From: Edaphobacter aggregans
Lineage (GTDB): Bacteria > Acidobacteriota > Terriglobia > Terriglobales > Acidobacteriaceae
Direction: 5' to 3'
DNA: 32,000 nt
Assembly (NCBI RefSeq): GCF_003945235.1
Contig: NZ_RSDW01000001.1
Location: 3,600,001 to 3,632,000, forward strand
Under the pieces are notes generated by a model. It was given only the letters and a program-made list of their open reading frames with translations. It searched no databases and was not told the origin of the DNA. Each line of letters begins with the position of its first letter. Position 1 is the stretch's first letter. Made by a program: the position numbers and the translations under genes. Shown in pieces: positions 11,912-30,145 of the stretch.

Positions 11912-11934
11912 CGACGTCGCTCACTCTGCTACCC

Positions 11935-13893: not shown

Positions 13894-13956
13894 CCGAACC
13901 GCTCCATCCTTTTGCATTCCTGGGCCAGCACTTTCGTAGCCTCTAAAAATGAGGTA

Positions 13957-13980
13957 GAACCAATAGTTTCCTATTGGTTC
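13957..13980. promoter_or_regulatory. perfect inverted repeat GAACCAATAG-TTTC-CTATTGGTTC (candidate operator or weak terminator hairpin)
   Basis: A 10/10-bp palindrome with a 4-nt spacer, 64 nt after the NHL gene stop and ~210-270 nt upstream of the receptor gene. The CCAAT half-site motif recurs as ATTGG (14024-14028) and CCAATAG (14040-14046). Confidence 0.35.
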
Positions 13981-14094
13981 TTCGCGGCGTATCCCCTGCT
14001 CTTCATCAAAGGCCGGCCCCGTAATTGGCAATCTTCCAGCCAATAGCACGCATCCCCGAAAAGGCACAACAGTAAAAAAATTACATTCCACCTC

Positions 14095-14122
14095 TTGACA
14101 GACGTTGTCGCAAAGGCAGAAT
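14095..14122 (+). promoter_or_regulatory. candidate sigma70-type promoter for the TonB-dependent receptor gene
   Basis: TTGACA at 14095-14100, a 16-nt spacer, then CAGAAT at 14117-14122, within the relatively AT-rich gap upstream of the gene. Pattern match only. Confidence 0.25.
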
Positions 14123-14190
14123 CTTGCAATCGCAATCAAGTGGTCTGACCATAGCTTCTTGAAACGATAAAAAAGCGCCCAAACGCGCCC

Positions 14191-17100
14191 ATGAACAAAA
14201 AGTTTTACCCGCAAAACCTAGAGAGGTTACAGATGATGCTCAACAACGATCGATCCACCATGTTCCGCTCCGGCAAAGGCGAAGAATCAAGCCCGCTCCG
14301 CCATCTTCTTCCGAGGCTCTTCCCCATTCTGCTGGTTCTCCTCACGGTCGTTCTGCTCTGCGGAACACCGGCCAACGCTCAGCTCGCCGGTAAGGGCGAA
14401 ATCAAGGGTACGGTGACCGACCCTTCCGGCGCAGTCGTCCCCGAAGCCACCGTCGTCGCGACATCGACAAGCCGCGGCCTCAAGTTCACCACCAAGAGTT
14501 CATCGTCCGGTGACTTCTCTGTCTCGGCACTCGATCCGGACATTTACACCCTCACCGTCACTGCCACGGGGCTCTCGACGACCACGCAGGAAAACATCCA
14601 CGTCAACGCGCTCGAAGTCGCAAACGTGAACGTCAGCATGAAGGTCGGCTCTGAAGCTGAGACCGTCACCGTTACCGCCGCTCCTCCCGCGCTCGAAACC
14701 AGCAACGCAGCCCTCGGCGCGACCATGGAGAACGACATGTACTCCGCGCTTCCCATCCAGATGGGAGCCTACGGCCAGCCTGACCAGCGCCGCGCCACCG
14801 ACTTCGCGTTCCTCATGCCCGGCGTGCAAGGCAACAACACCAACGGCAACGCCACCACCAACACCGGAATTGTCAACGGATCGGGAAGCCGCGGCGCCGT
14901 CTCTGCCGTGTATATCGACGGCATCCCATTCGTGCGTGCCGGAGGCAACGGCGACCCGCGCTACGTATGGACCGCCATCTCCGTCGATGCGGTCGACCAG
15001 TTCCAGGTTCAGACCGCCGGATACTCCGCCATCTATGAAGGGCAGGGAATTCAGAACTACGCCATCAAGCAGGGCGGCATCAAGTATCACGGGAGCGTCT
15101 ATTATTTCTTCCGCAACACGGCCCTCGACACCTGGGGCTTCTTCGGCGCTGTTCCCAACCCCGTCACCGGCGTAGTGGCCAAGCCAACCGAGCACAGCCA
15201 CGAGTACGGCATTGCTCTCAGCGGCCCGCTCGTTCCCGTTGGTTCGTTGAAAGACAAGCTCTTTTTCTTCGGCAACTACAACGGCTTCCGCTATTCAAGC
15301 CAGACCCCGACCAGCCTGACCTTCCCGACCGCAGCCCAGCAGGCAGGTAACTTCGCGGGACTGGTCAGCGGCGGTATCTTCGATCCCACGACGCAGGCAG
15401 CATGCACGGCTCATAGCACTGACGGTCCGTGCCGGTACCGGTACGGTTACATAGGAGGCAGCGCGGCAGGGTCCAGAGGAAATCCGGTCCTCTCAGGCCA
15501 ACCTGTAGACGTGATTCCGTCGAGCGAATTCTCGCAGATCGCCCTCAAGCTCCAGAGCTATCTCCCGAGCGGTATTGGCACGTCGGCGCAGAACAACTTC
15601 AACTCCCCCAATTCGACTGGCTTGACGAACTGGTCCACGACCAACCGTATCGATTATGCGTTCACCTCGAAGGACACGCTGACCCTGGTGGCAGCCATCG
15701 GCCGTCAAGCGAGTTCCAATCCCACCGGCCAGACGACTGCAGGGCGCAACGTAGGTCCGGTCCCGTATAACTACGGTCAGGTCTTCGCTCCCAAGACAGC
15801 CGTAGGCGTCATCGAGGAAACCCATATCTTCTCGCCGCATCTCATCAATCAGTTCAAATGGGGATACGCCCGGTACAACGGTCCCACCTTCCAATCGAAT
15901 CAAGTCCCCGTCTACGCTGCAACAGCTCAGGGCCTGACAGGCCTGCCAGCCGGACCGGCATCCCAGGCCTTCCCGATCGTCACCTTCGCCGGTACCAACG
16001 CTCCAACCAACTGGGCTGGTCAAGGTCCCAATATCACTCTTGCTGAGAACTACACCCTGCTCAACAACGTGCAATGGAATGTTGGAAAGCACTCGTTCAC
16101 CTTCGGTGGACAGATCGCTTGGCTCCAATACAACGTCACACCAAATACCGGCGGTTCAAGCCCGCTTACCATGGCCAATGCCGTTACCGAGACCGCAGCG
16201 ATCAACAAATCAAGCAATTCAAGTCCTGCCTATGCGGCGACCTCTAACACCGGCTACTCCTACGCCAGCTTCCTCATCGGTCAGATCGACAAAGGCAGCC
16301 TGACTCAGAATCTCGTGCAGCAGTTCAATTCGCGCTTCCGCGCCATCTCCCCCTACGTTCAGGACAACTGGAAGGTCAACGAAAAGCTCACCCTCGATCT
16401 TGGCCTGCGCTGGGACTATTTCCCCACGCTTCTTGATGCGCACGACAACATGAGCTTCTTTAGTCCCACTCTGGCTAACCCCATTACCGGCACGAATGGA
16501 GCGCTGCAGTTTGCCGGCACCGGATCTGGTACCTGCAACTGCCGTACACCGGTCAATAACTACTTCAAGAACTTCGGCCCGCGCATCGGCCTCGCGTACC
16601 AGGTCGATCCAAAGACCGTCATCCGGTCCAGCTACGGCATCATGTTTACCCACGGCAATGCCGTTGGCGGCGGCGGTTCCACCGCTGGCTTGGCTGGCAA
16701 CTCCCTTGGCTTCTCGGCCAGCCCAAGCTTCTCGGCTAACGGCCAACTGCTATCCACCTTCCCGCTCACCGGGACGAACAGCGCATTCCCGTCCTTTGCA
16801 CCTGCCGCAGGCCGCGCCGTGGGCCCGGCCTTTGGAACCGGCTATACGACGACGAGCGGTTACACCGGCACGCCGTCTACCGTCAGCTACTACGATCCAT
16901 ATCTCGGCAGCCGTGCTCCTGAGTATGTCAACTGGACCCTTGGCTTCCAGCACCAGTGGACCAATGCACTTACCTCGAGCATCACCTACGTGGGATCGCA
17001 GGGACACTTTCTTCCTGCCGATGCCAGCAACGCTCGTGGCTTCTGGGCAAACCAGCTCGATCCGAAGTACCTGTCCCTGGGAACAGCTCTGAACTCGGCT

Positions 17101-18036
17101 GGTACATCGGCCTGTGCAGCGAACGGCCTCACTTGCCCATCGGGCTTTACCACAGGGCAGCAGCTCAATGTGGCTCTCCGTCCGTTCCCGTTCCAAGGGG
17201 TCACCGATCAGTTTGCTTACGTCTCCAACTCCAACTACAACGCACTCCAGGTGACCCTCAACATGCGCGCCACCCATGGACTCACCTTCATGGCCAACTA
17301 CACATGGTCGCGCTCCATCGACGATGGAGGCACCTTCCGGACCGGATACGATATTCCGGCTGCATTCTCCGGCGATGGACAGTTTCACAAGGCTGATTCC
17401 ATCGAGCGCAGCGTATCCACTAGCAACCAGCCACAACACATAGTCATCACGGGCGTATGGGATATGCCCTTCGGCCGCTCTATGCTCAACAATAGCGGAT
17501 GGGAGCGAGCGATCTTTGGCGGATACAAGCTCTCCACCATCTACCAGGCCTACTCTGGTTCGCCGCTCGCCATTACAGGAGCAACCTGCAACGCCAACCC
17601 GGCGCAGATTACCTGCATGCCCAGCTACAATCCCTCCTTCGCCGGTCCAGCCCGCATCAACGGCAGTTGGGGGCATGGCGTCACCCGTACCAACTACAAG
17701 GACACCACCAATCCTGGCTCCTTTTTCATCAATTCAAACGCGTTCGTCTATGCGCCTGCTTACACCTTCGGCAACAATCCACGTACCGCTCCGTACAACA
17801 TCTACGGTCCGGGCAACTACAATCTCGATCTCAGCCTCCGTCGCAGCTTCGGCCTTCACCTCGGTGAATCGTCCAGGTTGAACCTCCAGGCCGACCTCTA
17901 CAACGTCACGAACCACACCCAGTTCACAGTGGCCAGCACAGTATGGAGCCCAACCACCACGAGCTTTGGCCAGGTCTCCGGTACTCAGGCCAATGGTCGC
18001 CGTTCCGCGCAGCTTCACGCGCGTATCGAGTTCTAA
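14191..18036 (+). CDS. TonB-dependent receptor-like outer-membrane barrel with N-terminal carboxypeptidase-regulatory-like domain
   Basis: A signal peptide (..LLVLLTVVLLCGTPANAQ) precedes a CarboxypepD_reg-type beta-sandwich (GEIKGTVTDPSGAVVPEATVVA...GDFSVSALDPDIYTLTVTATG). A plug-like region follows (FLMPGVQG...VYIDGIPF), then ~1000 aa rich in Gly/Asn/Tyr/Thr strands, ending in the terminal ..HARIEF. A start at ATG 14233 (GAGAGG SD 6 nt upstream) is at least as likely as 14191. Confidence 0.85.
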   Translation: MNKKFYPQNLERLQMMLNNDRSTMFRSGKGEESSPLRHLLPRLFPILLVLLTVVLLCGTPANAQLAGKGEIKGTVTDPSGAVVPEATVVATSTSRGLKFTTKSSSSGDFSVSALDPDIYTLTVTATGLSTTTQENIHVNALEVANVNVSMKVGSEAETVTVTAAPPALETSNAALGATMENDMYSALPIQMGAYGQPDQRRATDFAFLMPGVQGNNTNGNATTNTGIVNGSGSRGAVSAVYIDGIPFVRAGGNGDPRYVWTAISVDAVDQFQVQTAGYSAIYEGQGIQNYAIKQGGIKYHGSVYYFFRNTALDTWGFFGAVPNPVTGVVAKPTEHSHEYGIALSGPLVPVGSLKDKLFFFGNYNGFRYSSQTPTSLTFPTAAQQAGNFAGLVSGGIFDPTTQAACTAHSTDGPCRYRYGYIGGSAAGSRGNPVLSGQPVDVIPSSEFSQIALKLQSYLPSGIGTSAQNNFNSPNSTGLTNWSTTNRIDYAFTSKDTLTLVAAIGRQASSNPTGQTTAGRNVGPVPYNYGQVFAPKTAVGVIEETHIFSPHLINQFKWGYARYNGPTFQSNQVPVYAATAQGLTGLPAGPASQAFPIVTFAGTNAPTNWAGQGPNITLAENYTLLNNVQWNVGKHSFTFGGQIAWLQYNVTPNTGGSSPLTMANAVTETAAINKSSNSSPAYAATSNTGYSYASFLIGQIDKGSLTQNLVQQFNSRFRAISPYVQDNWKVNEKLTLDLGLRWDYFPTLLDAHDNMSFFSPTLANPITGTNGALQFAGTGSGTCNCRTPVNNYFKNFGPRIGLAYQVDPKTVIRSSYGIMFTHGNAVGGGGSTAGLAGNSLGFSASPSFSANGQLLSTFPLTGTNSAFPSFAPAAGRAVGPAFGTGYTTTSGYTGTPSTVSYYDPYLGSRAPEYVNWTLGFQHQWTNALTSSITYVGSQGHFLPADASNARGFWANQLDPKYLSLGTALNSAGTSACAANGLTCPSGFTTGQQLNVALRPFPFQGVTDQFAYVSNSNYNALQVTLNMRATHGLTFMANYTWSRSIDDGGTFRTGYDIPAAFSGDGQFHKADSIERSVSTSNQPQHIVITGVWDMPFGRSMLNNSGWERAIFGGYKLSTIYQAYSGSPLAITGATCNANPAQITCMPSYNPSFAGPARINGSWGHGVTRTNYKDTTNPGSFFINSNAFVYAPAYTFGNNPRTAPYNIYGPGNYNLDLSLRRSFGLHLGESSRLNLQADLYNVTNHTQFTVASTVWSPTTTSFGQVSGTQANGRRSAQLHARIEF

Positions 18037-18055
18037 CCCAACACTCACAACAACC

Positions 18056-18090
18056 AAAAAGCCCCGGGGTTCGCCTTGGGGCTTTTGTTT
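18056..18090 (+). terminator. intrinsic terminator after the receptor gene
   Basis: AAAAA, then the stem GCCCCGGGG / CCTTGGGGC (9 bp including 2 G-U pairs) with a TTCG loop, then TTTTGTTTT. The flanking A-run also allows function on the minus strand. Confidence 0.8.
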
Positions 18091-18276
18091 TCCGCAGCAC
18101 AAAATGCCGGGCGCCCCATATCCGGCAGCCTCATTGCCAGAGGTGGGGGCATTTGCGTAGAAACGCGAACCACACTCCAGACCTGTCAAGCCTCATTCCA
18201 GTCTAACCCTTTTACTCACAATAACATCCGAATGGCATTTAATTCTCTCCAGCCCGCTATAATAGAACCAGAGAAC

Positions 18277-18311
18277 AAAAGAGCCCCGCCACGAGCCGGG
18301 GCTCTTTTTTT
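18277..18311. terminator. bidirectional intrinsic terminator
   Basis: AAAA, then the stem GAGCCCCG / CGGGGCTC (8 bp) with an 8-nt loop, then TTTTTTT on the plus strand. The minus strand reads stem then TTTTGTTCTC. Confidence 0.7.
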
Positions 18312-18341
18312 GACTGAGACTGAAAACTGAAACCGAACCAA

Positions 18342-18403
18342 GATCCAGACTTAAGTCCCAATTTTTTAATACTTTGCGTACTTAAGTGGGGGAGGGGGTA
18401 CTT
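18342..18403 (-). repeat. 'C-run' repeat family, copy C2
   Basis: Plus strand reads GATCCAGACTTAAGTCCCAATTTTTTAATACTTTGCGTACTTAAGTGGGGGAGGGGGTACTT. It is about 70% identical by eye to C3, 130 nt downstream in the same orientation, including an exact TAATACTTTG. Confidence 0.65.
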
Positions 18404-18470
18404 GCAATCACCCGTCGATTACCAACTGGACGGCGCAACAGAACGCAGGTCTAAGACCTGCCTAACCGGA

Positions 18471-18533
18471 GGTCCAGACCTAAGCCTAATCTTTGTAATA
18501 CTTTGAGAGTCAAGGTACGGGGAGGGGGGTACC
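18471..18533 (-). repeat. 'C-run' repeat family, copy C3
   Basis: Plus strand reads GGTCCAGACCTAAGCCTAATCTTTGTAATACTTTGAGAGTCAAGGTACGGGGAGGGGGGTACC. GGTAC/GTACC brackets the G-run, which is the C-run on the minus strand. The copy begins ~15 nt downstream (minus sense) of the 91-aa gene stop. Confidence 0.65.
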
Positions 18534-18547
18534 GCAGATGCCTAGGA

Positions 18548-18823
18548 TCACATGATTCGGAACCGTTCCCGCATCAGCCGTTGGAATCGTGGCTTCCAGA
18601 TCAGGTCGTAGGCCAGCTCTTTTCCGGGAAACATGGCTAGCGCCGCCTTCCTGCTGTCGGCGATCATCTGGGACGCATCATCGACCGTCAGCGAGGCATC
18701 CTGCGCGATGACCTGCATCACCATGTTCATCATCAGCTGCAGCCGGCGAATCAGCTTTTGCTCCTCCGCCCGCTCTTCGACACTGACCTCAGCTCCAGCA
18801 GCACCCGATTGATCCAGCTCCAT
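18548..18823 (-). CDS. hypothetical protein (91 aa, predicted helical, no recognisable domain)
   Basis: A strong GAGGAGG SD lies 7 nt upstream of ATG 18823, and the gene sits directly downstream of comEC on the same strand. No motif was recognised. Confidence 0.6.
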   Translation of the reverse strand: MELDQSGAAGAEVSVEERAEEQKLIRRLQLMMNMVMQVIAQDASLTVDDASQMIADSRKAALAMFPGKELAYDLIWKPRFQRLMRERFRIM

Positions 18824-18929
18824 CAGATAACCTCCTCAGCTATGCCATGCACGATCATCATGCTCTTCTGTAAGATGCACCCGCAAGAAGCTAGGAACCA
18901 AGGGAGAGTCATCCAGTGCGTTCCATTGC

Positions 18930-21668
18930 TTAGTTGTCGCCCGCGATAGCCTGAATCCCACCGTTACGGTCCAGCAGAAAGGTCGTCAGCCCAAACTCAT
19001 CGGTCCGGTATAGCCTTGTCCCGTTATCGGCGACCCGTTGAATCACCTCAAATCTGGGATGGCCGAACGTATTACCTCTTCCCACCGAGACAACCGCATC
19101 CTTTGGCGCCACCGCCGCGAAGAACTCCGGCGTCGTCGACGTTCTGCTCCCATGATGACCAACCTTCAGCAGCGTGACCGGAGCAAGCCGTCCACTGGCA
19201 ACCATCGCCCTTTCGCTGGAAGCCTCAGCATCTCCCTCGAGAAGCACGGAAGCCTTACCGTACTCGACGCGCATCACTAGTGAGTCGTTGTTCACTGGGG
19301 CTCCGCCGTTCACATAGCTCGCTTCGGGAGCCAGCACACTCACCTGCGTTCCACTCCACGCCAGATAGTCACCCGCGTGAAGATGGCGAACACGCACACC
19401 AATATCCTCAGCCTCTGACAGGAGAGCGCGATACGCCACTGAGTCCGGATCGACTCCGACCCAGAGTTCCCGGGGACGAAAGCTCCGCATTACCGCAGCC
19501 ATCCCCCCCATATGGTCACTATGCGCATGGCTCAATACGATCACATCGAGTCGTCGAATCTGCCGCGACCAGAGATAGGGCGAAACAACCTCTTCTCCAA
19601 CATCGAAGGTGCTGGTTGCCGCTGCCGTCTCGGTTACTGCTCCGACTGGGCCACCCGCATCGACTAGCATCATTCGTCCCTCCGGGCTAACGACGAGGAG
19701 TGAGTCACCCTGGCCAACGTCGATCGCCGTCACTTCCATCTTCTCCGGCGATGTTAGGGCCCGTTCTGGCCACAGCACCATCGCTGCAATCAGCGGCACG
19801 GTAATGACCGCTGCCCAAGTCCATCTGCGAGAACGCCGTACACCCCAACAACAGAAGCCCCATCCGATTAACGCCAAAATCGCCACGTGCCATGTTGGGC
19901 CGGGAGTTCGTAGGTCAGCCGACTGTATGTGACTCACGCGCGCGATCACCCAAGTGATTCCGTGGAGTAGCGCTGCGGTTACGGACGCTGGGATGAGTGC
20001 GATCCGTCGGCTTACGAGAGAGGCGCAGAAGGTGATTATAGCCAGGGGTGCCAACATCGTCACGACTGGCATTGTGACCATGTTGGCGGGTAAAGCGAAG
20101 ACTGTAGCGCGATGGAAGTAGAGTGCCATGGGGAGGACCATGATCATCTCCGCGACGAGTCCTATCAATGCGAGTTCAACCGCCCAGAGTGTGCATCGGA
20201 TCGATATTGCAGGAAGGTGGTGAGCCCAAGTTCCTAATATTTTTGCGAGAGCATTGCCCCAGAGCTGGAGCATCATGCGGAACTGCGCAACGGGTGGTGT
20301 GAAGCCCATATCTCGCCAGCGTTCATCGAGGTTCGATGCTGCACGAGCGTATGGTGCGAAGGTGCGCTCTCCCAGAGGCGCCGCGATGCCGCCGATTGCA
20401 ACGATCGCTAGAAACGTCATTTGGAAACTGGCTTCGAAGAGGCTCCTTGGCGACAGGATGAGGACGCCAAGCGCTGCCGCTCCTAGTGCGTTCAGGATGC
20501 TTTGGTCGCGTGAGATTAGCCGCGCGATGAGGAAGATGGTTGTCATGAACAAGGCTCGCTGTACGGGAGCACCGAATCCCGTCAGCAGGGCATAGCAAGC
20601 TGTTGCTGTCAGGGTCAGGAGTGTTGCTAGCCACTCTCGAAGTCGCATGCAGCGTGTGATCCAGAAGATGACTCCTGCGAGCAGCGCAACGTGCATTCCG
20701 GAGACGACAAAGAGGTGGAACGATCCAGTTCGCTCAAAGTCCAGTCGCAGATCGTGATTTAATCCGGCTCGGTCGCCGAACAGCATTGCGTTCAACATGC
20801 CTGCCTCGTCTGGCGTGATCCGCAGCGCTGGGGGGAGCCGATGGGTTGTACTCGATTGGGCAAACTTCAGCATGCGGTCGGAGGCCCAACTTTGCGCTGC
20901 GTAGAGACGACATTGCAGGCTTGCCTGAGGAGTTGCAGCCACGTGCAGCTTCGCCGCGCGAACTGTTGCGTGCGTTCCTATGCCTTGTGCGAGCAGGTAG
21001 TCTGCGTACTGCCAGGCTCCGGGATCGCGGTAGCGTTCCGGGATCTTGAGGCGCATCGGCGCTTCGACAATATCTCCGCAGTGCAGTTCGGGAAGAGCGT
21101 TTCCGTGGGTTAGAACGGTGGCTCGCACGCCGCCTGCTGTGGTGATCATTCGGGAAATATCCGGTGTTACTTCTTCTATGGCTTCAATTTGCAGATCGAC
21201 TGATAAGGCTTCTGCGGCTTCTGGCTCTTTCTCGATCCACCAAGCTGGGTCGTTGTCCTGGTCGGCTGCGTTTTGCCGCAGTGGAAGTGTGCGGACTCGG
21301 ACCACGCGGCCGCGTACTGTTCTGCTCAGGCCGTCTGCATACGGCAGCAAAGCTTGTTGCGACTGCGGCGGTGGCTGCGTCTCGGCGCACCAGAAGCCGA
21401 GTGTTATCCAGACGGCGGCTAGCGGTACGAGTGTTAGTCGTAACGAGTGCTTCAGTGCGGCTATTGCGAGCAGCAGGAGAACGAGCGTTGCGGTGAGCAG
21501 GATGATCCGTGGTTGCCAGTTTCTGGATAGCACTATGCCCAGCGCGAACCAAGATGCGGCGGCAAGCAGAGTGGCGCGGCGGAAGTGGAGTGCTTCTATT
21601 GCGGCTGCGGCCTTGGGCCACAGTGCAGGATTTGGTTTGCCTGTTTTCACTGACTTCGAGGAGCCCAC
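18930..21668 (-). CDS. comEC: DNA internalization-related competence protein ComEC/Rec2
   Basis: 912-aa ORF with an N-terminal TM plus OB-like region, a polytopic competence domain (GSFHLFVVSGMHVALLAGV...) and a C-terminal metallo-beta-lactamase domain (VTAIDVGQGDS, VIVLSHAHSDHMGG, KVGHHGS). GTG start at 21668. Confidence 0.9.
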   Translation of the reverse strand: MGSSKSVKTGKPNPALWPKAAAAIEALHFRRATLLAAASWFALGIVLSRNWQPRIILLTATLVLLLLAIAALKHSLRLTLVPLAAVWITLGFWCAETQPPPQSQQALLPYADGLSRTVRGRVVRVRTLPLRQNAADQDNDPAWWIEKEPEAAEALSVDLQIEAIEEVTPDISRMITTAGGVRATVLTHGNALPELHCGDIVEAPMRLKIPERYRDPGAWQYADYLLAQGIGTHATVRAAKLHVAATPQASLQCRLYAAQSWASDRMLKFAQSSTTHRLPPALRITPDEAGMLNAMLFGDRAGLNHDLRLDFERTGSFHLFVVSGMHVALLAGVIFWITRCMRLREWLATLLTLTATACYALLTGFGAPVQRALFMTTIFLIARLISRDQSILNALGAAALGVLILSPRSLFEASFQMTFLAIVAIGGIAAPLGERTFAPYARAASNLDERWRDMGFTPPVAQFRMMLQLWGNALAKILGTWAHHLPAISIRCTLWAVELALIGLVAEMIMVLPMALYFHRATVFALPANMVTMPVVTMLAPLAIITFCASLVSRRIALIPASVTAALLHGITWVIARVSHIQSADLRTPGPTWHVAILALIGWGFCCWGVRRSRRWTWAAVITVPLIAAMVLWPERALTSPEKMEVTAIDVGQGDSLLVVSPEGRMMLVDAGGPVGAVTETAAATSTFDVGEEVVSPYLWSRQIRRLDVIVLSHAHSDHMGGMAAVMRSFRPRELWVGVDPDSVAYRALLSEAEDIGVRVRHLHAGDYLAWSGTQVSVLAPEASYVNGGAPVNNDSLVMRVEYGKASVLLEGDAEASSERAMVASGRLAPVTLLKVGHHGSRTSTTPEFFAAVAPKDAVVSVGRGNTFGHPRFEVIQRVADNGTRLYRTDEFGLTTFLLDRNGGIQAIAGDN

Positions 21669-21710
21669 GAGTTGCGTTTACCACCCATCTCGCCGACAAA
21701 ATTCACTACT

Positions 21711-23021
21711 CTATTGCTGCAAGATCGCAACTGTCTCCAGATGGAAGGTCTGGGGGAAGAGGTCGATCATGTGCAGCTCTGCCAGCCTGTAGCCGGAGTC
21801 TACCATTGCCTTCAGGTCGCGTCCCAGTGTTACCGGGTCGCAGGAGACGTGGACGATATGTTTTGTCTTCAGGCGTGCAAGCAGGGAGCAGACTTCTAAG
21901 CCGACTCCTGCGCGTGGTGGGTCCAGGACGATAAGGTCGGGGCGTTCTCGCTGGACTACAGCTGCGCGGAGGAAGTCGAGGGTTGTGGCGGCGATGGCTC
22001 GTCTTCCTTCGCCCTTGAAGGTTCGTGTGAGGTCGTCGGCTGCGGCTTCTACGGCTACGACTTGTTTGAAGGTCTTGGTGAGCGCTCGGGAGAAGAGACC
22101 TACTCCGGCGAAGAGGTCCCAGGCGAGAGTTCCGCTGCGGTTGCTCGTGACGAGGTTTACGAGTTCATCGATCAGGAAACGATTGACCTGGAAGAAGCCC
22201 CCGCGGCTGACCCAGTAGCTCTCGTTTGCTGCTGTGTAGTTCAGGCCTTCGGTTCCCCACGAAGTTCCTTGTTTGATCTTCTGTACCTTGCGGCCTCTTC
22301 CTGCTTCGGTGGAGAGTATTGCTGTGCCTGCTCCGACGAGTTGTGGAATGAGTTGCTGGAGTTTGGTGCAGAGGTCGATGAAGCCTTTTGCGGGTTCCTC
22401 GCTGACGAAGAGGGTAATCTGGAGCTTGGTTTGGTCGGCTTTGGTGAAGAGTTCGATTTCGGTTGCGGCCTGCATCCAGCGCGAGGCGTTGGGATCTTGC
22501 TGGGCGAGTTGCAGAAGTGCTTCTGCGGCTTTGAAAAGAAGAGGCGCGGAGATTGGGCACATCTGTATGGGGAGAAATTCAGCGGAGGCGCGGCGAAGGT
22601 ATCCGACGCGAAGGTTGCCTTCGAACTTGGCGGCTCGGAGGCGAATTCGGTTTCGGTAGTGCCACGGTTTGTTTGTGTGTGTCTGAATTTGTAGTGGATC
22701 GGTCAGGCCTGCGCGTTCGAGGGTTTCGCGCAGGATTTCGTGCTTCATTTCAATTTGTGCTGCGTAGTCTGCGTGTTGATAGTGGCACCCGCCGCATTCG
22801 CCGAAGTGGGTGCAGCGTTGTTCGATGCGGTTGGCGGATGGTTCGATGATGTTGAGTAGCTTTGCTTCTCCGAAGCTGGATTTCTCTTCGCTTCGTTGTG
22901 CTTCGACCAGTTCGCCTGGGAGCGTGAAGGGGACGAAGATCGCTTTGCCCGCGTCTTTGCCTTCGGTTTGGTGAGCGAGGCCGGAGCCGCCGTAGATGGC
23001 TTTTTCGATTCGCAGCTTCAT
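21711..23021 (-). CDS. rlmD: 23S rRNA (uracil-5-)-methyltransferase, RlmD/RumA family
   Basis: An N-terminal TRAM-like domain precedes the Fe-S cysteine cluster CTHFGECGGCHYQH and a SAM-MTase fold (LFAGVGLFS). The catalytic C-terminal motif VSCDPVTLGRD is present. The start overlaps the upstream gene stop (ATGA). Confidence 0.85.
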   Translation of the reverse strand: MKLRIEKAIYGGSGLAHQTEGKDAGKAIFVPFTLPGELVEAQRSEEKSSFGEAKLLNIIEPSANRIEQRCTHFGECGGCHYQHADYAAQIEMKHEILRETLERAGLTDPLQIQTHTNKPWHYRNRIRLRAAKFEGNLRVGYLRRASAEFLPIQMCPISAPLLFKAAEALLQLAQQDPNASRWMQAATEIELFTKADQTKLQITLFVSEEPAKGFIDLCTKLQQLIPQLVGAGTAILSTEAGRGRKVQKIKQGTSWGTEGLNYTAANESYWVSRGGFFQVNRFLIDELVNLVTSNRSGTLAWDLFAGVGLFSRALTKTFKQVVAVEAAADDLTRTFKGEGRRAIAATTLDFLRAAVVQRERPDLIVLDPPRAGVGLEVCSLLARLKTKHIVHVSCDPVTLGRDLKAMVDSGYRLAELHMIDLFPQTFHLETVAILQQ

Positions 23022-23725
23022 TCGTGGCTCATATAGAAGAGGCTTAGGCGCGGTAGCTTGTTGCCTTCGAGGAGGCGCTTTTGCAGGAACTGTTGCTGGA
23101 CTTGTTTGATTTGGACTGCCTGCATCTTGCCGCGATAGGGAGCTAGTTCGCGGGTTGCCTGCTCGCGCAGGGCTACGAGCTGGTCTTCAGGTGTCGCGGT
23201 GAGGAGTGCGGCGAAGAGCTTTTCTTCGAGGACGCTCAGGGTTCGGTCGAGTTCTTCGAGTGAGTGTGCTGGATGGCTTCGTAGTTCGGTTGCGAGGACT
23301 TTCAAGCGTGCTGTGACTTCGACTGCGGTTGTGTTGGCTGGTGATAACAGGTTCGCGCCTGCGATAGAAGCCGCGTTTGTCTCGAGGAAGCGGGCTACGC
23401 GGTCTGACTCGAAGCCGCTGTCTATTGTTTCGGAGGGTCTGGCACCGATGGCTGCTTCGTTGGCTTGTTCTACGGCTTCCATGACGCTTTGAGCGCACCA
23501 GGCCAGGCCGTTGACCTTGCGGGTTCTGCCGGGCGGTCGCAATGACTTGGCGTCATGCTTGTCGAAGGCGCTGTCGATGCCTCGCAGGACGGCTTCGAGG
23601 GGAATTCCTGCTTCTTTCCAGGTTTCGATGAGCGCCCAATCGAGGGTGGAGAGCATGAGGAGGGAGCCTCGGCGTTGTTGGAAGCGTTCTTCGATCTCGG
23701 TGAAATAGTTGAAGTAGTTCTGCAT
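23018..23725 (-). CDS. conserved hypothetical protein; the N-terminal region loosely resembles a DnaD-type helical domain
   Basis: 235-aa ORF translationally coupled to rlmD (ATGA overlap at 23018-23021). The N-terminus YFTEIEERFQQRRGSLLMLSTLDWALIETWKEAGIPLEAVLRGI resembles DnaD-domain spacing, but this is an impression only. The C-terminal half looks coiled-coil-like. Confidence 0.55.
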   Translation of the reverse strand: MQNYFNYFTEIEERFQQRRGSLLMLSTLDWALIETWKEAGIPLEAVLRGIDSAFDKHDAKSLRPPGRTRKVNGLAWCAQSVMEAVEQANEAAIGARPSETIDSGFESDRVARFLETNAASIAGANLLSPANTTAVEVTARLKVLATELRSHPAHSLEELDRTLSVLEEKLFAALLTATPEDQLVALREQATRELAPYRGKMQAVQIKQVQQQFLQKRLLEGNKLPRLSLFYMSHE

Positions 23726-23860
23726 CGGGCCTTCTACAGCTTAGCTGGGTTCATGGGTCCCCTCGGGGGGATCAATTTACAAGTCGCTTATTTTCAAGCA
23801 GATGGAAAACGGCTTCGGCTAAAATCGTCTAAACAAAAGTGTTGCGGCTAAATCTTCATT

Positions 23861-23896
23861 CTAAAAGGGAAAGCCTCGGCACTGACCGAGGCTTTC
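23861..23896 (-). terminator. intrinsic terminator downstream of the GH18/acyltransferase operon
   Basis: An 11-bp perfect stem GAAAGCCTCGG / CCGAGGCTTTC (23869-23879 / 23886-23896) has a 6-nt loop. TTTT runs lie on both sides. It sits ~125 nt past the stop at 24020. Confidence 0.6.
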
Positions 23897-24019
23897 TTTT
23901 CCGATCTCTTGATTCAAGTATAGCGGGTTGAGCGGAATTATTCGGCAACGCAAATCGCCTTGATTGGCGCGGAGATTTGCGATTTGGGAGCTGACAGGTT
24001 TTCGCGCTGGTGGTCCCGC

Positions 24020-25252
24020 TTAAAGTTGCAGCCGAACCTTCAATCTCGTAAAAACCGCAGCTATCGCGAGAATGAATGCAGTGAAGAGTGCCGATCGTAT
24101 CGCTCCGGGCCACCCATAGTTGAGATGCGTTTCGAAGTACGTGATGCCTGCCAAGGCGAGGATGAAGTAGTAAAAGTCTGGCAGCAGGTAGGTCAGCAAG
24201 GTGTTCGAGCCGGCGGGACGAGCGAAGAAGGCCCATGCGGTTTGCTTCTTCACGTCGCAGATCCAGTAGAGTGCGGTGAATATTAAGACTGCGGCTCCGA
24301 TGCTGTAGAGACACCATGTAGAGGTTGCTCTGATTTTGGAGATGCCTAGCGGGGTGAGGAGCCATCCGGCTAGCAGGGTTGAGAAGGCGAATGCGAAGCC
24401 GAGAAGGGTTTTTGGGCGAAGTGTCTGCCAACGGTGATTGCCGAGAAAGATGACGGAAGTGACGACGCCTGCCATGGTGATGCAGGGCATGGCTCCGTTG
24501 CTGAATGGCCAGAAGTAGAGTGGGAGATGATGAGTGAAAGTGATCCACTTTGCTGTGCAGAGGCTGTTGAACGTCAACAGTGTGATAAACCATGCAAGCG
24601 GAAACCAGAGCCAACGACGTGTCGGAATATAGAGGATTGCTACTGCAAGATAGGTGTAGCCGATGAGGCCGAGGATCTCCGGGTAGGAGCCGTCGATCCA
24701 AGCGACGTGTCCGTCGTGTGTGGTACGGCGAAAGATGGCGAACATTGCAATGGTCAGGACAAAGCCGACGATGCGTAGCCAGCGATGCAGCGTTGCGTGG
24801 CGTTCTCCGTTATAGACGCTGAGGAATAGTGCTGCGCCTGTGAGAGCCAGAATCGCCCAGGCGTTGGGGTTGATGTGCATGAGGGCGCGATCGCCGCTTT
24901 CGGCGTTGGCTAAGATGAGCCCGAGAACGATGAGGCTGGCGGCTCGAAAAAGAACATGGAAGCAAAGGGATGGCAGGGATGGGTTCTTCTTTAATCGTTG
25001 GCGGATGGCGAGGGGAATCGACAGGCCGACGATGAAGAGGAAGAAGGGGTAGACCATGTCGACATAGGTCATGGCGTCGACGTTGGCCTTCATGTGGTAG
25101 TTCCACCAGGGCAGGCCGCGGACGCTCGCCAGATCGTTGACGAAGATCATCACTACCATCGTGAGACCACGGAAGATATCGATGGAGGCCAGGCGTGAGG
25201 TGGCGGATTTCTCTGTGAGGGTGACTGATGAAGTTTGCGTGGCCGGGGTCAT
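24020..25252 (-). CDS. polytopic membrane acyltransferase-like protein, HGSNAT/DUF5009 (COG4299-like) family
   Basis: 410-aa ORF with ~11 hydrophobic helices. The family-typical N-terminus is RLASIDIFRGLTMVVMIFVNDL...WWNY..H...DAMTYVDMVYPFFLFIVG. The start overlaps the GH18 stop (ATGA at 25249-25252). Confidence 0.7.
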   Translation of the reverse strand: MTPATQTSSVTLTEKSATSRLASIDIFRGLTMVVMIFVNDLASVRGLPWWNYHMKANVDAMTYVDMVYPFFLFIVGLSIPLAIRQRLKKNPSLPSLCFHVLFRAASLIVLGLILANAESGDRALMHINPNAWAILALTGAALFLSVYNGERHATLHRWLRIVGFVLTIAMFAIFRRTTHDGHVAWIDGSYPEILGLIGYTYLAVAILYIPTRRWLWFPLAWFITLLTFNSLCTAKWITFTHHLPLYFWPFSNGAMPCITMAGVVTSVIFLGNHRWQTLRPKTLLGFAFAFSTLLAGWLLTPLGISKIRATSTWCLYSIGAAVLIFTALYWICDVKKQTAWAFFARPAGSNTLLTYLLPDFYYFILALAGITYFETHLNYGWPGAIRSALFTAFILAIAAVFTRLKVRLQL

Positions 25253-26418
25253 TTCGTCCCATTATGCACGTATGGCGTTTTCTTCAGGCCCGTATCGATG
25301 GCGTCGAGCAGCGCGCCTGTGGGATCGCCGGAGTAATCCCAGAACATCATGCCGCCGAGTTTGTGGTCGACCACATACTTGCTCTTCAGGGCAAGGGATT
25401 CGGGATCTTCATACGAGACGAAGATTTTCTTTTCAGGGTTGTAGAGATAGGGGACCGAAGCGACGGGGTCCCAGTAACGTGTGTAGCCGTTGTTCAGCAT
25501 GGTGGTGGTGATGTTGCCATACCTCGCGAAGGCATTGGGAACCGGCTTGCCTGCCTGAAATAGGCCGTGATCTGTATCGGATACCTGGCCCCATACATGT
25601 CCATAGAAGGGGACGCCGAGAACGATCTTCGCTGTAGGGACGCCAGCTTGTTCGAACTCCTGAACGGACCTGTTACCCGAGATTTTTTTGGGGTCGGCGG
25701 GATTCGTGAAGAGAGGAGCATGGTGTGCGGCGATTGCGTCGGAGGAGGGCTCGTAGTAGTCATAGGCCATCAGGTTGACCGTATCGACGTATTTTTGTGC
25801 CTTACCCATTTCGGTATGCGCCAAAAAATCAGATGAGGCGCCAGTTGCGATCGTGAGGTAGAGTTGGCGGTGAAGCTTCTTTTCCTGCTGGTTGAAGCGA
25901 TGTCGAAGCTCTTTGAGGAGTAGCGTGTAGTTCTGCTTGTCCTCGGGGCGGAAATGATTGCCAGCGCCTACCATGCCTGGGTACTCCCAGTCGATGTCGA
26001 GTCCGTCGAGATGATTGTGATCGACGAACTCCACGACGCTTTCGATGAATAGATTGCGGCTCTTTTTGGTGAAGGCCATGTCGGAGAAGTTGCCCGACCA
26101 AGCCCATCCTCCGACGGAGACGAGTACAGTGAGGGAAGGATTTTCCTGCTTTAGTGCAACGAGCGCTGCTAGGTTTTTGTCGTCGTTGGTGAAGCCGTTG
26201 ATGATGCGGCCACCTTGCAGGTTGGCGAAGGCGTAGTTGATGCGGGTCAGCTTCTGTGCGGCGATCTGACCGGGCTGGATTAGATCGTTTCGCTGAAACA
26301 CATAGGCGACTATAACGGGCTTTGGAGTTTGAGCGGGTGCTGCGGCGAGTAAAACGGGACTGCAGGATAGGCCACAGATGAGCAGCAGCCTCTGTATACT
26401 CAGTCGATTTCTATGCAA
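25249..26418 (-). CDS. secreted glycoside hydrolase family 18 (chitinase-like)
   Basis: A signal peptide (LLLICGLSCSPVLLAAAPAQ) is present, with the catalytic DxxDxDxE motif LDGLDIDWEYPG. Further GH18 blocks are INYAFA, SVGGW, NLMAYDY and GGMMFWDYSGD. Confidence 0.9.
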   Translation of the reverse strand: MHRNRLSIQRLLLICGLSCSPVLLAAAPAQTPKPVIVAYVFQRNDLIQPGQIAAQKLTRINYAFANLQGGRIINGFTNDDKNLAALVALKQENPSLTVLVSVGGWAWSGNFSDMAFTKKSRNLFIESVVEFVDHNHLDGLDIDWEYPGMVGAGNHFRPEDKQNYTLLLKELRHRFNQQEKKLHRQLYLTIATGASSDFLAHTEMGKAQKYVDTVNLMAYDYYEPSSDAIAAHHAPLFTNPADPKKISGNRSVQEFEQAGVPTAKIVLGVPFYGHVWGQVSDTDHGLFQAGKPVPNAFARYGNITTTMLNNGYTRYWDPVASVPYLYNPEKKIFVSYEDPESLALKSKYVVDHKLGGMMFWDYSGDPTGALLDAIDTGLKKTPYVHNGTK

Positions 26419-26608
26419 AGCGCGTGAACTCCTTTTTGAGGAACATATCTTCTGTTTTCATTAGACGTCAGTTCTTCGTAATCTGTTTGGAAGACATGGC
26501 CAGTGTAGATTCATACTGTAGGATGTCGCGAGTGGCGGCAGGCATCGAGTTTGTCGGTTAGGCCGCAACGGTTGTTCTAAAGAGGGTAAAAAGATCAAAC
26601 GCATCTGG

Positions 26609-28426
26609 ATGCAGGTTCTAGCAGTTTGTTGTATGGGATCGTTTGGCTCTGCGTGCATGGGCCAGTTGCATGTCCTGGTGGATCATGTTGGATATGAGAC
26701 GCGCGCGCCCAAGCAGGCGCTTGTGGTTGGCGCGGACTGGGATCATCCTCAAAAGTTCGTGCTGATTGATACGGTGACGGGCAAGACAGTGTTGACAGGA
26801 ACTCTGACTCAAGGCGGCCAGGTGGATTCGTGGGGTGGGCGTGTCTTCTGGATCGCTGATTTTTCTTCGTGGCAAAAGGCTGGTCACTATGCGATTCAGA
26901 CGCAATCAGCTGCGGGCGAAGTAAGTTCGTGTTCGTTCGATATTGATGATGATCTTTTGGAACGTAATACGCTTTCGAATGTGGTCTTTTACTTAAAAGG
27001 ACAACGAGCTAGCGGGCTGATGGATCAAGCGGACCGTCATCTTCCGTTGCCTGCGGGCCAGTCAGGCTTTGTGGATGTGCACGGTGGCTGGTATGACGCT
27101 ACAGGCGACTACGGGATTCACTTGTCGCATCAGAATTTGACGTCCTATTTCAATCCTCAGCAGGTACCGCTTGTGGCGTGGACGCTGTTGAAGAGTTATC
27201 GCGTGCTTGAGGCGAGGCGCGATGACAACTTCAGTGAGTATGAGCGGCGCATGCTGGATGAGGGTCTATTTGGCGCTGACTATCTGGTGCGCATCAAACG
27301 GCCCCATGGCTCGTTCTTCGAAAGCATTACGGCGCCTGGGAAGGATAAGTTGCCGCAAGATCGAGCGATTGGTAATCCGAACTGGCGCACTCAGATCAAG
27401 AAAGATGCCTCGGATAGCACCGAGCGTATGCAGCGTGCTGAAAGGCCCGAGGACTTTGAGGCGAGCTTTCGTGCTGGTGGAGGTATGGCTATCGCCGCGC
27501 TGGCATTGGCCAGTACTATGCCTGCCGACGGGGACTTTACTCGCGCTGACTATCGGCGTGCTGCCGAAGAGGCGTTTCAGTTTCTAGATAAGCACAATCG
27601 CGAACTGTTGAACGATGGGAAGGAAAATATCCTCGACGACTACTGCGCGCTGATGGCGGCTACGGAGCTGTATCGCGCAACGAAGCAGGAGACTTACCGG
27701 GCTGCTGCAGATCGACGCGCTGCCCATCTGATGGCTCGGCTTACGACCATTGAAGGACGTCGTGACTCCTGGCGTGCGGACGACGGGGTGCGACCCTACT
27801 TTCATCCCTCGGATGCGGGCTTACCAGTTGTCAGTTTGCTTGAATATGCGCAGATCGCTACTTCGGCGGTGCAAAAACAAGTGCACGACGCGGTGGAGCG
27901 GTCGCTGCGTTTCGAGCTTGGTGTAACAGGCGAGGTCAACAATCCGTTCGGATACGCGCGGCAGTTGGTGAGAATGGGAGATGGTAAGGTTCGCACTGCA
28001 TTCTTCTTTCCTCACGATACGGAAGCGGCTCCGTGGTGGCAGGGTGAGAACGCTCGGCTAGCTTCGCTCGCCGCTGCGGCTCGGATGGCTACGCCGCTCT
28101 TTGATAAGGACCCTGCGTTTCAGTTGCAGCTCGAAGGGTATGCCTGGAACCAGTTGCACTGGATCCTGGGACGGAATCCTTTTGACACGAGCATGCTGAT
28201 GGGAAGCGGTCACGGGAATGCGCCGTACATGTTCTTCCGTTCGTATAAGTACACGAGCGCTCCGGGAGCCATTGTCAACGGCATTACTGCCGCCAACGGT
28301 GATGAAGACGGCATCGCTTTCAACGAAGGATATGCTGTGACCGGCAAGGATGAAGACTGGCGCTGGACGGAAGAGTGGCTGCCACATGCAGCCTGGTATC
28401 TGTACGCTGTCAGCCTTCCGCACTGA
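26609..28426 (+). CDS. divergent glycoside hydrolase family 9-like protein (Ig-like N-domain plus (alpha/alpha)6 domain)
   Basis: The N-terminal CelD_N-like segment reads VDHVGYETRAPKQALV...DFSSWQKAGHYAI. GH9-like blocks are GGWYDATGDYG (canonical GGWxDAGD with one inserted residue), ILGRNPFDTSMLMGSGHGNAP and a C-terminal W.WTEEW. The canonical PHHR is replaced by MFFR. No convincing signal peptide. Confidence 0.6.
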   Translation: MQVLAVCCMGSFGSACMGQLHVLVDHVGYETRAPKQALVVGADWDHPQKFVLIDTVTGKTVLTGTLTQGGQVDSWGGRVFWIADFSSWQKAGHYAIQTQSAAGEVSSCSFDIDDDLLERNTLSNVVFYLKGQRASGLMDQADRHLPLPAGQSGFVDVHGGWYDATGDYGIHLSHQNLTSYFNPQQVPLVAWTLLKSYRVLEARRDDNFSEYERRMLDEGLFGADYLVRIKRPHGSFFESITAPGKDKLPQDRAIGNPNWRTQIKKDASDSTERMQRAERPEDFEASFRAGGGMAIAALALASTMPADGDFTRADYRRAAEEAFQFLDKHNRELLNDGKENILDDYCALMAATELYRATKQETYRAAADRRAAHLMARLTTIEGRRDSWRADDGVRPYFHPSDAGLPVVSLLEYAQIATSAVQKQVHDAVERSLRFELGVTGEVNNPFGYARQLVRMGDGKVRTAFFFPHDTEAAPWWQGENARLASLAAAARMATPLFDKDPAFQLQLEGYAWNQLHWILGRNPFDTSMLMGSGHGNAPYMFFRSYKYTSAPGAIVNGITAANGDEDGIAFNEGYAVTGKDEDWRWTEEWLPHAAWYLYAVSLPH

Positions 28427-28447
28427 GCACCTAGATGAGACTTGCTT

Positions 28448-28969
28448 TTACAACAGGTAGAAGCTGAATTGATCGACGTTGGGTGGTCGAACTCCGAGAG
28501 TTCGCAACATGCTTATCACCTGGCCTCGGTGGAGCGTGGAGTGGTTCACCAAATGGGCTACGATCATTGAATAGGAGAGGCGCAACTCCTCTCCATCAGG
28601 CTTGAGGCAGGAAAGTTCGGTAGAGATGTCGGGTTCCTGCAAGTCTTCGAGCCATCGATGGAGACTGTGCCAGACTTCGGGCCACTTTTGTTTGAGGCTG
28701 TTCAAGTCAGGCTCAGGTGGCGGATCTTCGAACAGGCGCTGATCACCAACTTCGATCAGCGGTGGGAGTTTGCTTGCGAGGAGGCGATTTCTCCAGACAC
28801 GCTCGGCGTAGAAGATGTGGCGAAGGGTTTCGAGGATGCTTCGATGAGAGGCGCCGAGGTCGCGGCTTAACTCGTCTGTGGTGAGGTTAGAGCAGGCTTC
28901 AAGGAGTTGCTGGTCGGCCCATGCTGAATAATCGATGTCATTGAGTAGGAGTTCTCTGGTCGTCGCCAT
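28448..28969 (-). CDS. DinB-family (DinB/YfiT-like four-helix bundle) protein
   Basis: Contains ...SILETLRHIFYAERVW... and the C-terminal HLVNHSTLHRGQVISMLRTLG motif typical of the DinB superfamily. ATG 28969 gives the usual ~173 aa, and the upstream extension to 29131 has no support. Confidence 0.75.
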   Translation of the reverse strand: MATTRELLLNDIDYSAWADQQLLEACSNLTTDELSRDLGASHRSILETLRHIFYAERVWRNRLLASKLPPLIEVGDQRLFEDPPPEPDLNSLKQKWPEVWHSLHRWLEDLQEPDISTELSCLKPDGEELRLSYSMIVAHLVNHSTLHRGQVISMLRTLGVRPPNVDQFSFYLL

Positions 28970-29227
28970 GGTGACGAGTATAGAGAAGAGGGTAGGATTT
29001 ATCTGCACGTCCAGGCATTGACCGGGAGAGCGTAAGCTGTGTATATCTCGTTGTTCCTGTACTCGGTTGTGCGGATCCACTTTCTTCTCGAATTCAAGGC
29101 GCTCTCGAAACAAGATACGAAGAACTTTCACGACAGAAGGTCACTCAAACATGAGTCAGGAGAATGCAGGGATGAAGCTTGTTTGTTCCTTTGGGTTGCT
29201 TCGCGTAAGCGCCAGGAGATATAAGCC

Positions 29228-30145
29228 ATGGACCTGGTGACAATTTCTCGGGAATCGCTGAGTGGAGTGGTGTCCGACGCTCAGGCTCGGAGTTGGTGTG
29301 CGCAACTGGAAGCTGGCGGGATTCTCTACTTTCCGGAGACGCCGGTCCCAATTCGCCACGAGGACATCGCGTTTCTCCTCGGGCAACAGCAGACGGATAG
29401 TTCTCTGCACAAAAATATTGCGTATAAACCTAACGTCGACAAGTTGAGCGGCGTGGATACGAAGACAGCCGATGCAGCTGCAGTGGCCCGGCTACAGTCG
29501 ATTATGCGGCAGTATTCCAAGAGCGTTGTGGCATTCCTGACTGGGTTTCTGTCGCCGTATCAGGGGAAGTGGGAGTTGGATTACGCGAGCTTTCGTCCGC
29601 AGGAGGAACAAGGACGTGATCTGCCTTTGCGGAAGCGAAACGACCTTCTGCATACAGACGCGTTTCCGACACGGCCTACGCACGGTGCACGGATTTTGCG
29701 CTTCTTTAACAATATTCATCCCAGCCGCACGCGGGACTGGGTGGTGGGGGATCCCTTTGCGACGATCGTGCGGCAGTTCACACCGGCGGAGATCGCTCCT
29801 TCGCCCGATAGTGGGTTAGGTCGGGTGGCTAAGGGATTGGGACGGGCGGTTGGTTTGGGCGCGGCGCTGCCTTCGATCAAGCGGTCGCCGTATGACGACT
29901 TCATGATGCGGTTCCATAACTTCCTGAAGGAGAATGAGCGCTTTCAGGCGGAGTGTGCGAAGTATGCGTGGCAGTTTCCGGCGGGGTCGAGCTGGATGGT
30001 GTATACCGATGCGGTTCCGCATGCGGTGCTGGCAGGTCAGTATGCGCTCGAGCAGACGCTGCTGGTGAAGCCGGAGGCGCTGGTGGCTCCGGAGACTTCT
30101 CCACTGAAGGTGCTGGAAGGGATTGCTGGGACTGCGTTGGTTTAG
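29228..30145 (+). CDS. Kdo hydroxylase-like Fe(II)/2-oxoglutarate dioxygenase (KdoO family)
   Basis: 305-aa ORF with an AGGAGA SD 8 nt upstream. LEAGGILYFPETP, KNIAYKP, SFRPQEEQGR and LLHTDAFPTRPTHGARILRFFNNIHP (an HxD metal motif) match my recollection of the Kdo_hydroxy family. The distal His block DAVPHAVLAGQYALEQT matches as well. Not verifiable without an HMM search. Confidence 0.6.
   Translation: MDLVTISRESLSGVVSDAQARSWCAQLEAGGILYFPETPVPIRHEDIAFLLGQQQTDSSLHKNIAYKPNVDKLSGVDTKTADAAAVARLQSIMRQYSKSVVAFLTGFLSPYQGKWELDYASFRPQEEQGRDLPLRKRNDLLHTDAFPTRPTHGARILRFFNNIHPSRTRDWVVGDPFATIVRQFTPAEIAPSPDSGLGRVAKGLGRAVGLGAALPSIKRSPYDDFMMRFHNFLKENERFQAECAKYAWQFPAGSSWMVYTDAVPHAVLAGQYALEQTLLVKPEALVAPETSPLKVLEGIAGTALV

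Follow-up and report, generated by a model that had tools for sequence, protein, structure and literature searches.

How an intact gene can lie across an abrupt reversal of strand composition is the question raised by a stretch of the Edaphobacter aggregans genome (RefSeq assembly GCF_003945235.1, contig NZ_RSDW01000001.1, positions 3,600,001 to 3,632,000). Within this stretch of 32,000 nucleotides (nt), hereafter the window, the given strand changes from C-rich to G-rich inside comEC, a gene that itself reads through the change unbroken. In this study, we found that the reversal is genuine and inherited, and that the switch is quite probably a replication pole of one kind or the other. More specifically, we give an even chance to the view that it is the fork-convergence zone of a vertically inherited replichore boundary, in a lineage in which the sign of the skew is reversed. 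comEC is a bystander that straddles the boundary, and the switch says nothing about competence.

Skew was measured as total composition, at third codon positions (always read on the plus strand) and at 4-fold sites; the G-versus-C change-point was placed by maximum likelihood, with a 2-log-likelihood interval as its support and 300 shufflings of 1-kb blocks as the null. The original prediction placed a sign change near 19.9 kb on the basis of hand counts of G:C per 60 nt, and all seven counts proved exact (14:26, 11:26, 12:23, 23:11, 21:13, 22:12 and 23:9). Sliding 1-kb windows are without exception negative from 1 to 20000 and positive thereafter, with GC skew per window of -0.13 to -0.33 on the left and +0.10 to +0.24 on the right. 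The change-point falls at nt 19887 (support 19865-19962) with a log-likelihood ratio (LLR) of 369.6, the largest value among shuffled blocks being 160. The change-point of keto bases (G+T versus A+C) likewise falls at nt 19887, and the cumulative G-C skew has its minimum at 19886, as expected of an oriC. To the left (1-19886) the given strand is rich in C and, for the most part, in A, with a total GC skew of -0.24 and a 4-fold skew of -0.65; to the right (19887-32000) it is G- and T-rich, with values of +0.17 and +0.44, respectively. The G-rich domain runs at least 10 kb past the window end in a sister strain (L088; L-numbers label comparison loci or contigs throughout), through glmS with its third-position skew of +0.72, and the window and this extension together hold a single switch in at least 42 kb. 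The amplitude of the skew is among the largest known to us for a bacterial chromosome.

Gene orientation has no influence on the sign of the bias, as originally claimed: on each side, third-position and 4-fold skew have the same sign for plus- and minus-strand genes. On the left, plus-strand third-position skew ranges from -0.28 to -0.70 in whole genes of both orientations and is -0.22 in the 3' part of comEC; the minus-strand phosphoribosyltransferase (PRTase) gene at 5078-5776 and the minus-strand gene for a 91-amino-acid (91-aa) protein share this sign. On the right, whole genes of both orientations show +0.09 to +0.59. At 4-fold sites of the plus strand, C reaches 61% and G 13% on the left; in the minus-strand genes of this side (n = 387) the direction is the same and weaker, with C at 49% and G at 20%. 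The corresponding composition on the right is G 46%, C 18%, T 25% and A 12%, near-identical for plus- and minus-strand genes. The bias co-enriches G with T, which is the classical signature of cytosine deamination.

comEC (18930-21668, minus strand) is intact. Its open reading frame (ORF) encodes 912 aa without interruption and contains the DUF4131, Competence (channel) and Lactamase_B (metallo-beta-lactamase) domains of ComEC/Rec2 proteins; the flip had been correctly located within it. The point estimate of the switch corresponds to codon ~594, 56 codons before the start of the Lactamase_B match at residue 650, and the change-point based on third positions only lies at gene nt 1782-1785 (support 1674-1875, LLR 10.5). 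Several orthologues show a step of about +0.1 to +0.3 in codon positions 1+2 where the membrane channel gives way to the metallo-beta-lactamase domain (gene nt ~1700-1970; window ~19700-19970), most clearly in L003, L033 and L034 (LLR 1.6-5.7). Thus, the sharpness of the total skew switch is partly protein-driven. In two species, the comEC reading frame itself deserves mention: comEC of L077 carries a 1-nt deletion ~1763 nt into the gene (L077 ~4390-4400), adjoining the switch position, and comEC of L221 (276-3010) is called at 708 aa only; in both cases a pseudogene or a sequencing indel is possible.

Rather than a single jump, the skew forms a staircase. The whole of comEC has attenuated third-position skew, about -0.23 at 18.9-19.9 kb and about +0.17 at 19.9-21.7 kb, as opposed to absolute values of 0.5-0.8 in the genes that flank it; the TonB-dependent receptor (TBDR) and NHL genes have -0.4 to -0.8. 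A second step lies at 21669-21800, the boundary between comEC and the tRNA methyltransferase gene, where plus-strand third-position skew rises from about +0.1 to +0.5-0.76. At the other edge, the amplitude drops from about -0.55 to -0.3 across a convergent junction (18037-18929) made up of the TBDR gene end, the 91-aa gene and, between them, an intergenic region containing a pair of terminator-like hairpins; the junction is kept in many relatives. The comEC orthologues of uniformly skewed relatives have full-amplitude skew; the attenuation is therefore a property of the comEC locus in the lineage of the window. The intergenic region of this junction (18037-18547), with its hairpins at ~18060-18095 and ~18282-18312, also holds two copies of a ~45-nt repeat, TAATACTTTG...GGGGAGGGGGTAC, at ~18369-18412 and ~18497-18540. 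This region had no match in an Rfam scan, nor did the whole window in Rfam and tRNA scans.

Could the switch be an artefact of assembly? An assembly chimera joining two co-occurring relatives inside a conserved gene had been offered as one option, and in its favour the closest matches of the window are metagenome assemblies and comEC holds conserved stretches. Three sister-strain contigs, JGI 3300005533 (120.7 kb), ENA ERZ27279679 (42.7 kb) and Logan SRR5579871 (13 kb), were produced by three pipelines, possibly from shared reads, and are 100% identical to one another, including the junction sequence. At 98.3% identity they align with the window collinearly and in one piece, and their switch lies where that of the window does, so the window represents a second strain with the same feature and the same join. 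Long-read contigs of other species also switch within comEC. One of them, L221, is a 1.4-Mb contig with the gene order of the window and a comEC of 79% DNA identity; its third-position skew steps at gene nt 1773 (support 1428-2100) and again at the comEC start, the same boundary as the second step of the window. Moreover, the ORF is unbroken and aligns collinearly with 80 orthologues. With the join repeated in three further assemblies and the step present in L221, we regard a chimera as extremely improbable.

For comparison, comEC neighbourhoods were fetched from the genomes of 80 Acidobacteriaceae species, their skew was segmented and third-position skew was tabulated per gene; gene order was compared in detail for ~18 loci. 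All 80 relatives have a three-domain ComEC, most of them without a switch, which disposes of the suggestion that a domain fusion created it. Nor does an inversion through homologous copies hold up, given synteny with Edaphobacter paludis on both sides; no second comEC turned up, although there was no dedicated search for one. To either side of comEC, E. paludis keeps the gene order of the window, with the tRNA methyltransferase gene at one flank and the 91-aa gene, M1 peptidase, PRTase, glk, pgl and zwf at the other, yet its skew is uniform. More generally, a junction of segments with different histories, in all the forms proposed, finds no support, as gene order, nearest relatives and G+C content at third positions (GC3) continue across the switch. 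When the ComEC of the window was divided into three segments, identities were 81/84/84% to L003 and 80/82/87% to L077, and relatives ranked in the same order in each segment. The flanking genes follow the same ranking, so that relatedness per domain and synteny, which the original prediction had named as a check, run continuously through the switch. GC3 is gene-specific rather than side-specific, with a pattern alike in all species, and no indel was found at the switch in DNA alignments.

Across the 80 loci, conserved gene order is found in three states: uniformly positive skew (e.g. L002, L022, L039 and L043), uniformly negative skew (e.g. L003, L051 and L071), and, as in the window, negative upstream and positive downstream. 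The third state occurs at no fewer than four separate places on the ComEC tree, namely the window with L001 and L221, a large Tunturiibacter-like clade (L006, L014, L015, L017, L033, L034, L036 and L044), L063, and L067/L075. Depending on the genus, the switch or its steps fall within birA or comEC, or at the 3' end of comEC. The reverse arrangement, positive upstream and negative downstream, was never found at full strength at conserved gene order among the 80 loci; strong switches of that sign are confined to loci whose synteny is broken downstream of the 91-aa gene (L023, L031, L035 and L045). Random junctions should give both signs equally, and this one-sided polarity at conserved synteny therefore points to a replication pole near the locus. 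In L003, the downstream block is inverted relative to the window and the skew is uniform, as expected if the inversion moved the pole to its far end. The option of the original prediction that the skew inflection of the replicon simply runs through a gene is thus supported by orientation independence, by the other assemblies and species, and by the continuity across the switch.

Some further observations concern these loci. A comparison of L003 13400-22700 with window 1-18036 shows that it is the zwf-side block that is inverted relative to comEC, and L003 does not have the TBDR-NHL-exosortase cluster here. The window and L003 share a rearrangement upstream of the 235-aa gene, with GH18 and KdoO in place of coaX-birA-nadC. 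In L039 and L074, both metagenome-assembled genomes (MAGs) of Edaphobacter, third-position skew is +0.75 to +0.86 in core genes and up to +0.91 in the comEC 3' part; C is nearly gone from the third positions of one strand, far above usual bacterial values. We also tried L033 and L034 (61% ComEC identity) as candidates for a switch at the same alignment column as the window and rejected them: their third-position change-points lie ~600 nt further 3', that of L033 being significant and that of L034 not (LLR 3.4). The coincidence of column is explained by the protein-driven step of codon positions 1+2 at the domain boundary. The match of L221 to the window switch survives the third-position test.

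Alternatively, the locus may be a mosaic, in which homologous recombination with a close relative that replicates the region oppositely replaced a large tract ending in comEC, or a remnant of rearrangement; each side would then have obtained its skew in another genomic setting. Suitable relatives exist, since same-gene-order loci are uniformly opposite in sign (L002 positive, L003 negative), and L003 differs from the window by an inversion adjoining the locus. Exchange is also plausible: divergence between the window (8931-31660) and the sister strain (L001) is patchy, ranging from zero differences at 24.9-27.9 kb to a density of 54 per kb at 21.9-22.9 kb, which indicates that homologous recombination is frequent in the population. 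However, nearest relatives and identity levels are equal on both sides of the switch, and both sides are at or near full amplitude and hence near equilibrium rather than decaying. A mosaic also sits badly with the single hybrid polarity seen in those four or more lineages, and with L221, which retains the step at the same position despite saturated synonymous divergence from the window. L003 and L077, which are related to the window about as closely as L221 is, are uniformly skewed. On balance, we consider a mosaic unlikely.

If the switch is a replication pole, of which kind is it? The original prediction described a formally origin-type sign with nothing origin-like around it, and this description stands: the G-rich strands diverge from the switch, and no origin features were found. 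DnaA boxes with up to one mismatch number 3 in 32 kb, 3.4 being expected by chance, and the switch has none close by. It lies in coding DNA of ~58% GC with no AT-rich unwinding element; dnaA, dnaN, gyrB and parAB are absent from the window, and signature motifs of dnaA, gyrB and parB from the 80 related loci. Compared with an oriC skew switch, the window is alike in its polarity and in the G+T enrichment of the strands running away. It differs in having neither dnaA/dnaN nor a DnaA-box cluster, unwinding element or intergenic space, and in that the switch falls in the middle of a conserved gene at a position that varies between genera.

Under the usual polarity, with a G/T-rich leading strand, forks would diverge here and replication would start in or next to comEC. 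The origin-type sign with its classical G+T co-enrichment and the sharpness of the switch speak for this, and it would explain two observations described below, the location of rRNA operons on the C-rich strand (they would then be head-on to replication) and the E. paludis locus with 65% of its genes on the G-rich strand. Initiation could be DnaA-independent and occur in an ancestral terminus region, akin to 'oriK', and discrete initiation sites would give stepwise plateaus as well. R-loop- or recombination-primed 'oriK' initiation occurs in E. coli rnhA and recG mutants. Besides the missing origin features, fork divergence would leave ~80% of the genes within ~20 kb on either side head-on to replication, and the variation of the switch position by genus (birA, comEC or the comEC 3' end) is hard to reconcile with an origin defined in cis. 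We know of no natural bacterium that replicates in this way, and hold divergence from comEC to be very doubtful.

In the scenario that we favour, a strong replication-type strand bias would change strand at a replichore boundary that happens to fall in comEC, and this boundary would be a fork-convergence (termination) zone rather than an origin. We infer termination because the switch lies inside coding DNA, is devoid of origin features and is accompanied by stepwise plateaus of reduced skew. These plateaus would stem from alternative fork-arrest points, both inside comEC and at its edges. If the boundary is a terminus, it follows that C and A predominate on the leading strand of this strongly skewed lineage, contrary to the usual bacterial rule. 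Several properties of the window are those of skew switches at termini with dif sites or fork traps: the reversal is abrupt and independent of gene orientation, it may occur within coding DNA, related species have it at different positions, genes converge on it, and the plateaus resemble the expected effect of alternative arrest sites. The window differs from described termini in its third-position skew of 0.5-0.8, far above the usual few percent, and in its sign, which is opposite to that of every one of them, the strands running towards the switch being C/A-rich.

The polarity of strongly skewed relatives can be judged from rRNA operons, which are almost always co-directional with replication. 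Metagenome contigs were scanned with an acidobacterial 16S 5' signature, yielding 120 loci, and skew was read on flanks of at least 3 kb. Wherever such flanks were strongly skewed and independent of gene orientation, the sense strand was always C-rich (L102, L093, L118, L143, L180 and the downstream flank of L200); positive flanks were weak, or moderate at most (L125). L102 belongs to the Acidobacteriaceae according to its MarC matches. A related 718-kb Acidobacteriaceae contig, L213, contains a complete rRNA operon (11656-17000) whose flanks, 11 kb upstream and 3.5 kb downstream, have a sense-strand skew of -0.19 to -0.32. The species of L213 is widespread, its flanking MarC protein being indexed in 81 collection blocks; 23 contigs with MarC were read.

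A second hint, independent of the first, that the leading strand is C-rich comes from E. paludis, whose genomes had been circularised and then set to start at dnaA with the help of BLAST (PMC11354219 and its supplement). In the record CP121195, the comEC locus is at 0.514-0.537 Mb of 4.32 Mb (12%), where the plus strand should lead. This strand is strongly C-rich, with a skew of -0.22 and third-position values of about -0.5, independent of gene orientation. No complete genome was among the matches of a KdoO homologue search for a second E. paludis locus. Together, the rRNA operons on the C-rich strand and the dnaA-anchored E. paludis locus suggest an excess of C and A on the leading strands of strongly skewed Acidobacteriaceae. 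The polarity data fit reversed mutational polarity in these lineages, replication from the classical terminus region, or a patchwork of skew domains. That the relation between skew and replication is reversed in the Edaphobacter- and Granulicella-like lineages with third-position skew of 0.5-0.9, by a C/A-rich leading strand or by replication from the classical terminus towards dnaA, is a tentative proposal to which we give somewhat less than an even chance. We found no literature report of reversed skew in Acidobacteria. In one published list, Acidobacteria is the phylum with the lowest replichore-level bias (PMC4613354). This listing fits with cancellation or mis-set origins, and not with weak local skew.

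A number of findings weigh against a terminus with reversed polarity. A change from C-rich to G-rich is the signature of an origin by a rule that, to our knowledge, holds in every bacterium studied so far, and the G-rich strands run away from the switch, which is not the polarity of a terminus. Queries with the dif sequences of E. coli, B. subtilis, Haemophilus and Caulobacter, together with the Koribacter and Solibacter sites from the supplement of PMC3025954, revealed no dif-like site from ~20 kb to the left to ~22 kb to the right of the switch (the window plus the 10-kb extension in L088), a further difference from known termini. The preference of genes for the C-rich strand is 55-60%, with p values of 0.04 to 0.3. 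The E. paludis evidence is a single 22-kb locus, possibly a locally inverted patch, and most of its genes (65%) are on the G-rich strand. Within the family, A. dinghuense, a weakly skewed member, has ordinary polarity at its rRNA locus, and L125 shares an rRNA-flanking gene with L102, yet has opposite, moderate skew. The last two cases exclude a reversal throughout the family.

Other guides to the direction of replication were tried. The converging transcription noted in the original prediction is there, as genes do converge on the site; its use as a terminus-like argument is weak because gene-strand bias in the clade is ~50%, and for this weakness we rejected gene-strand bias as a guide altogether. 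Polar 8-mers resembling FtsK-orienting polar sequences (KOPS) were also rejected as a marker, since polar words follow base composition; GGGNAGGG, for example, is distributed 142:13, with ~17:1 expected. As for tRNA genes, seven were found in 1.8 Mb. Among all loci, one convincing dif-like site was found, at L032 1596-1623 (CCTCCGCATAACCGATATTATGTTCAGT), which is intergenic and 8.4 kb upstream of comEC. L032 is a 4.73-Mb Edaphobacter chromosome, and its local skew changes from about -0.1 to about +0.1 across this site. The record coordinates of relatives are an ambiguous guide, with comEC at 49% in Tunturiibacter psychrotolerans, at 98.7% in T. empetritectus and at 12% in E. paludis. In the two Tunturiibacter records, the gene precedes the midpoint of one by 48.5 kb and the end of the other by 50.6 kb, positions that are suggestive of a nearby pole, although the two records disagree on which pole it is.

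Two other kinds of skew reversal bear comparison. Inversions and horizontally acquired DNA leave 'forensic' anomalies in skew plots (SkewDB, PMC8941118). The window shares with them a local sign change, and such discontinuities are also seen at the gene-order breaks downstream of comEC in L023, L031, L035 and L045; it differs from them in that no break in gene order, reading frame, GC3 or phylogenetic neighbours accompanies the change. Animal mitochondria show reversals of strand asymmetry after inversion of the control region, where, as here, related lineages that largely keep their gene order differ in the sign of a strong deamination-type skew. Being another type of replicon with another mechanism, they are a precedent solely for polarity flips between lineages.

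The surroundings of the switch can be described briefly. By gene content and best protein matches, the window belongs to the Acidobacteriaceae, near Edaphobacter; look-ups of exact protein matches for its ComEC and 6PGD, and for the ComEC of E. albus, gave no result. The left side carries zwf-pgl-glk, the M1 peptidase gene, an exosortase cluster and the TBDR gene, nearly all on the plus strand. A minus-strand run follows, made up of comEC, the tRNA methyltransferase gene, the 235-aa gene, a DUF5009 gene and a GH18 gene, and farther right are genes for GH9, DinB, Kdo hydroxylase and pentapeptide proteins. The tRNA (U5)-methyltransferase-like gene and the 235-aa gene (21711-23725, minus strand) form with comEC and the 91-aa gene a core syntenic block that is found throughout the ~18 loci of the detailed comparison and in most of the 80. 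In the exosortase cluster, a 116-aa ORF at 9870-10220, directly upstream of the exosortase gene (10256-11911), overlaps a 66-70-aa gene called in the sister strain and matching PF27850 (Targ_of_XrtJ). About 7-8 kb past the right end of the window, at L088 17285-19153, an AAA_21 ATPase and DUF4276 pair with GC3 of 0.40-0.46 and zero skew lies in surroundings with third-position skew of +0.4 to +0.7. This pair looks like a recently acquired island and is possibly a defence system.

A skew switch within a gene is unremarkable alone, and for annotation the lesson is that comEC is intact. What is remarkable here is the combination of large amplitude, termination-like anatomy and origin-type sign. 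An excess of G over C on the leading strand is assumed by the prediction of origins and termini, by checks for misassembly in MAGs and by coverage-based estimates of growth rate; if this assumption fails in abundant soil bacteria, those tools return inverted answers for them. Furthermore, if the reversal is true, the mutational mechanism of skew would be testable in a natural contrast of close relatives, A. dinghuense with ordinary polarity and E. paludis without.

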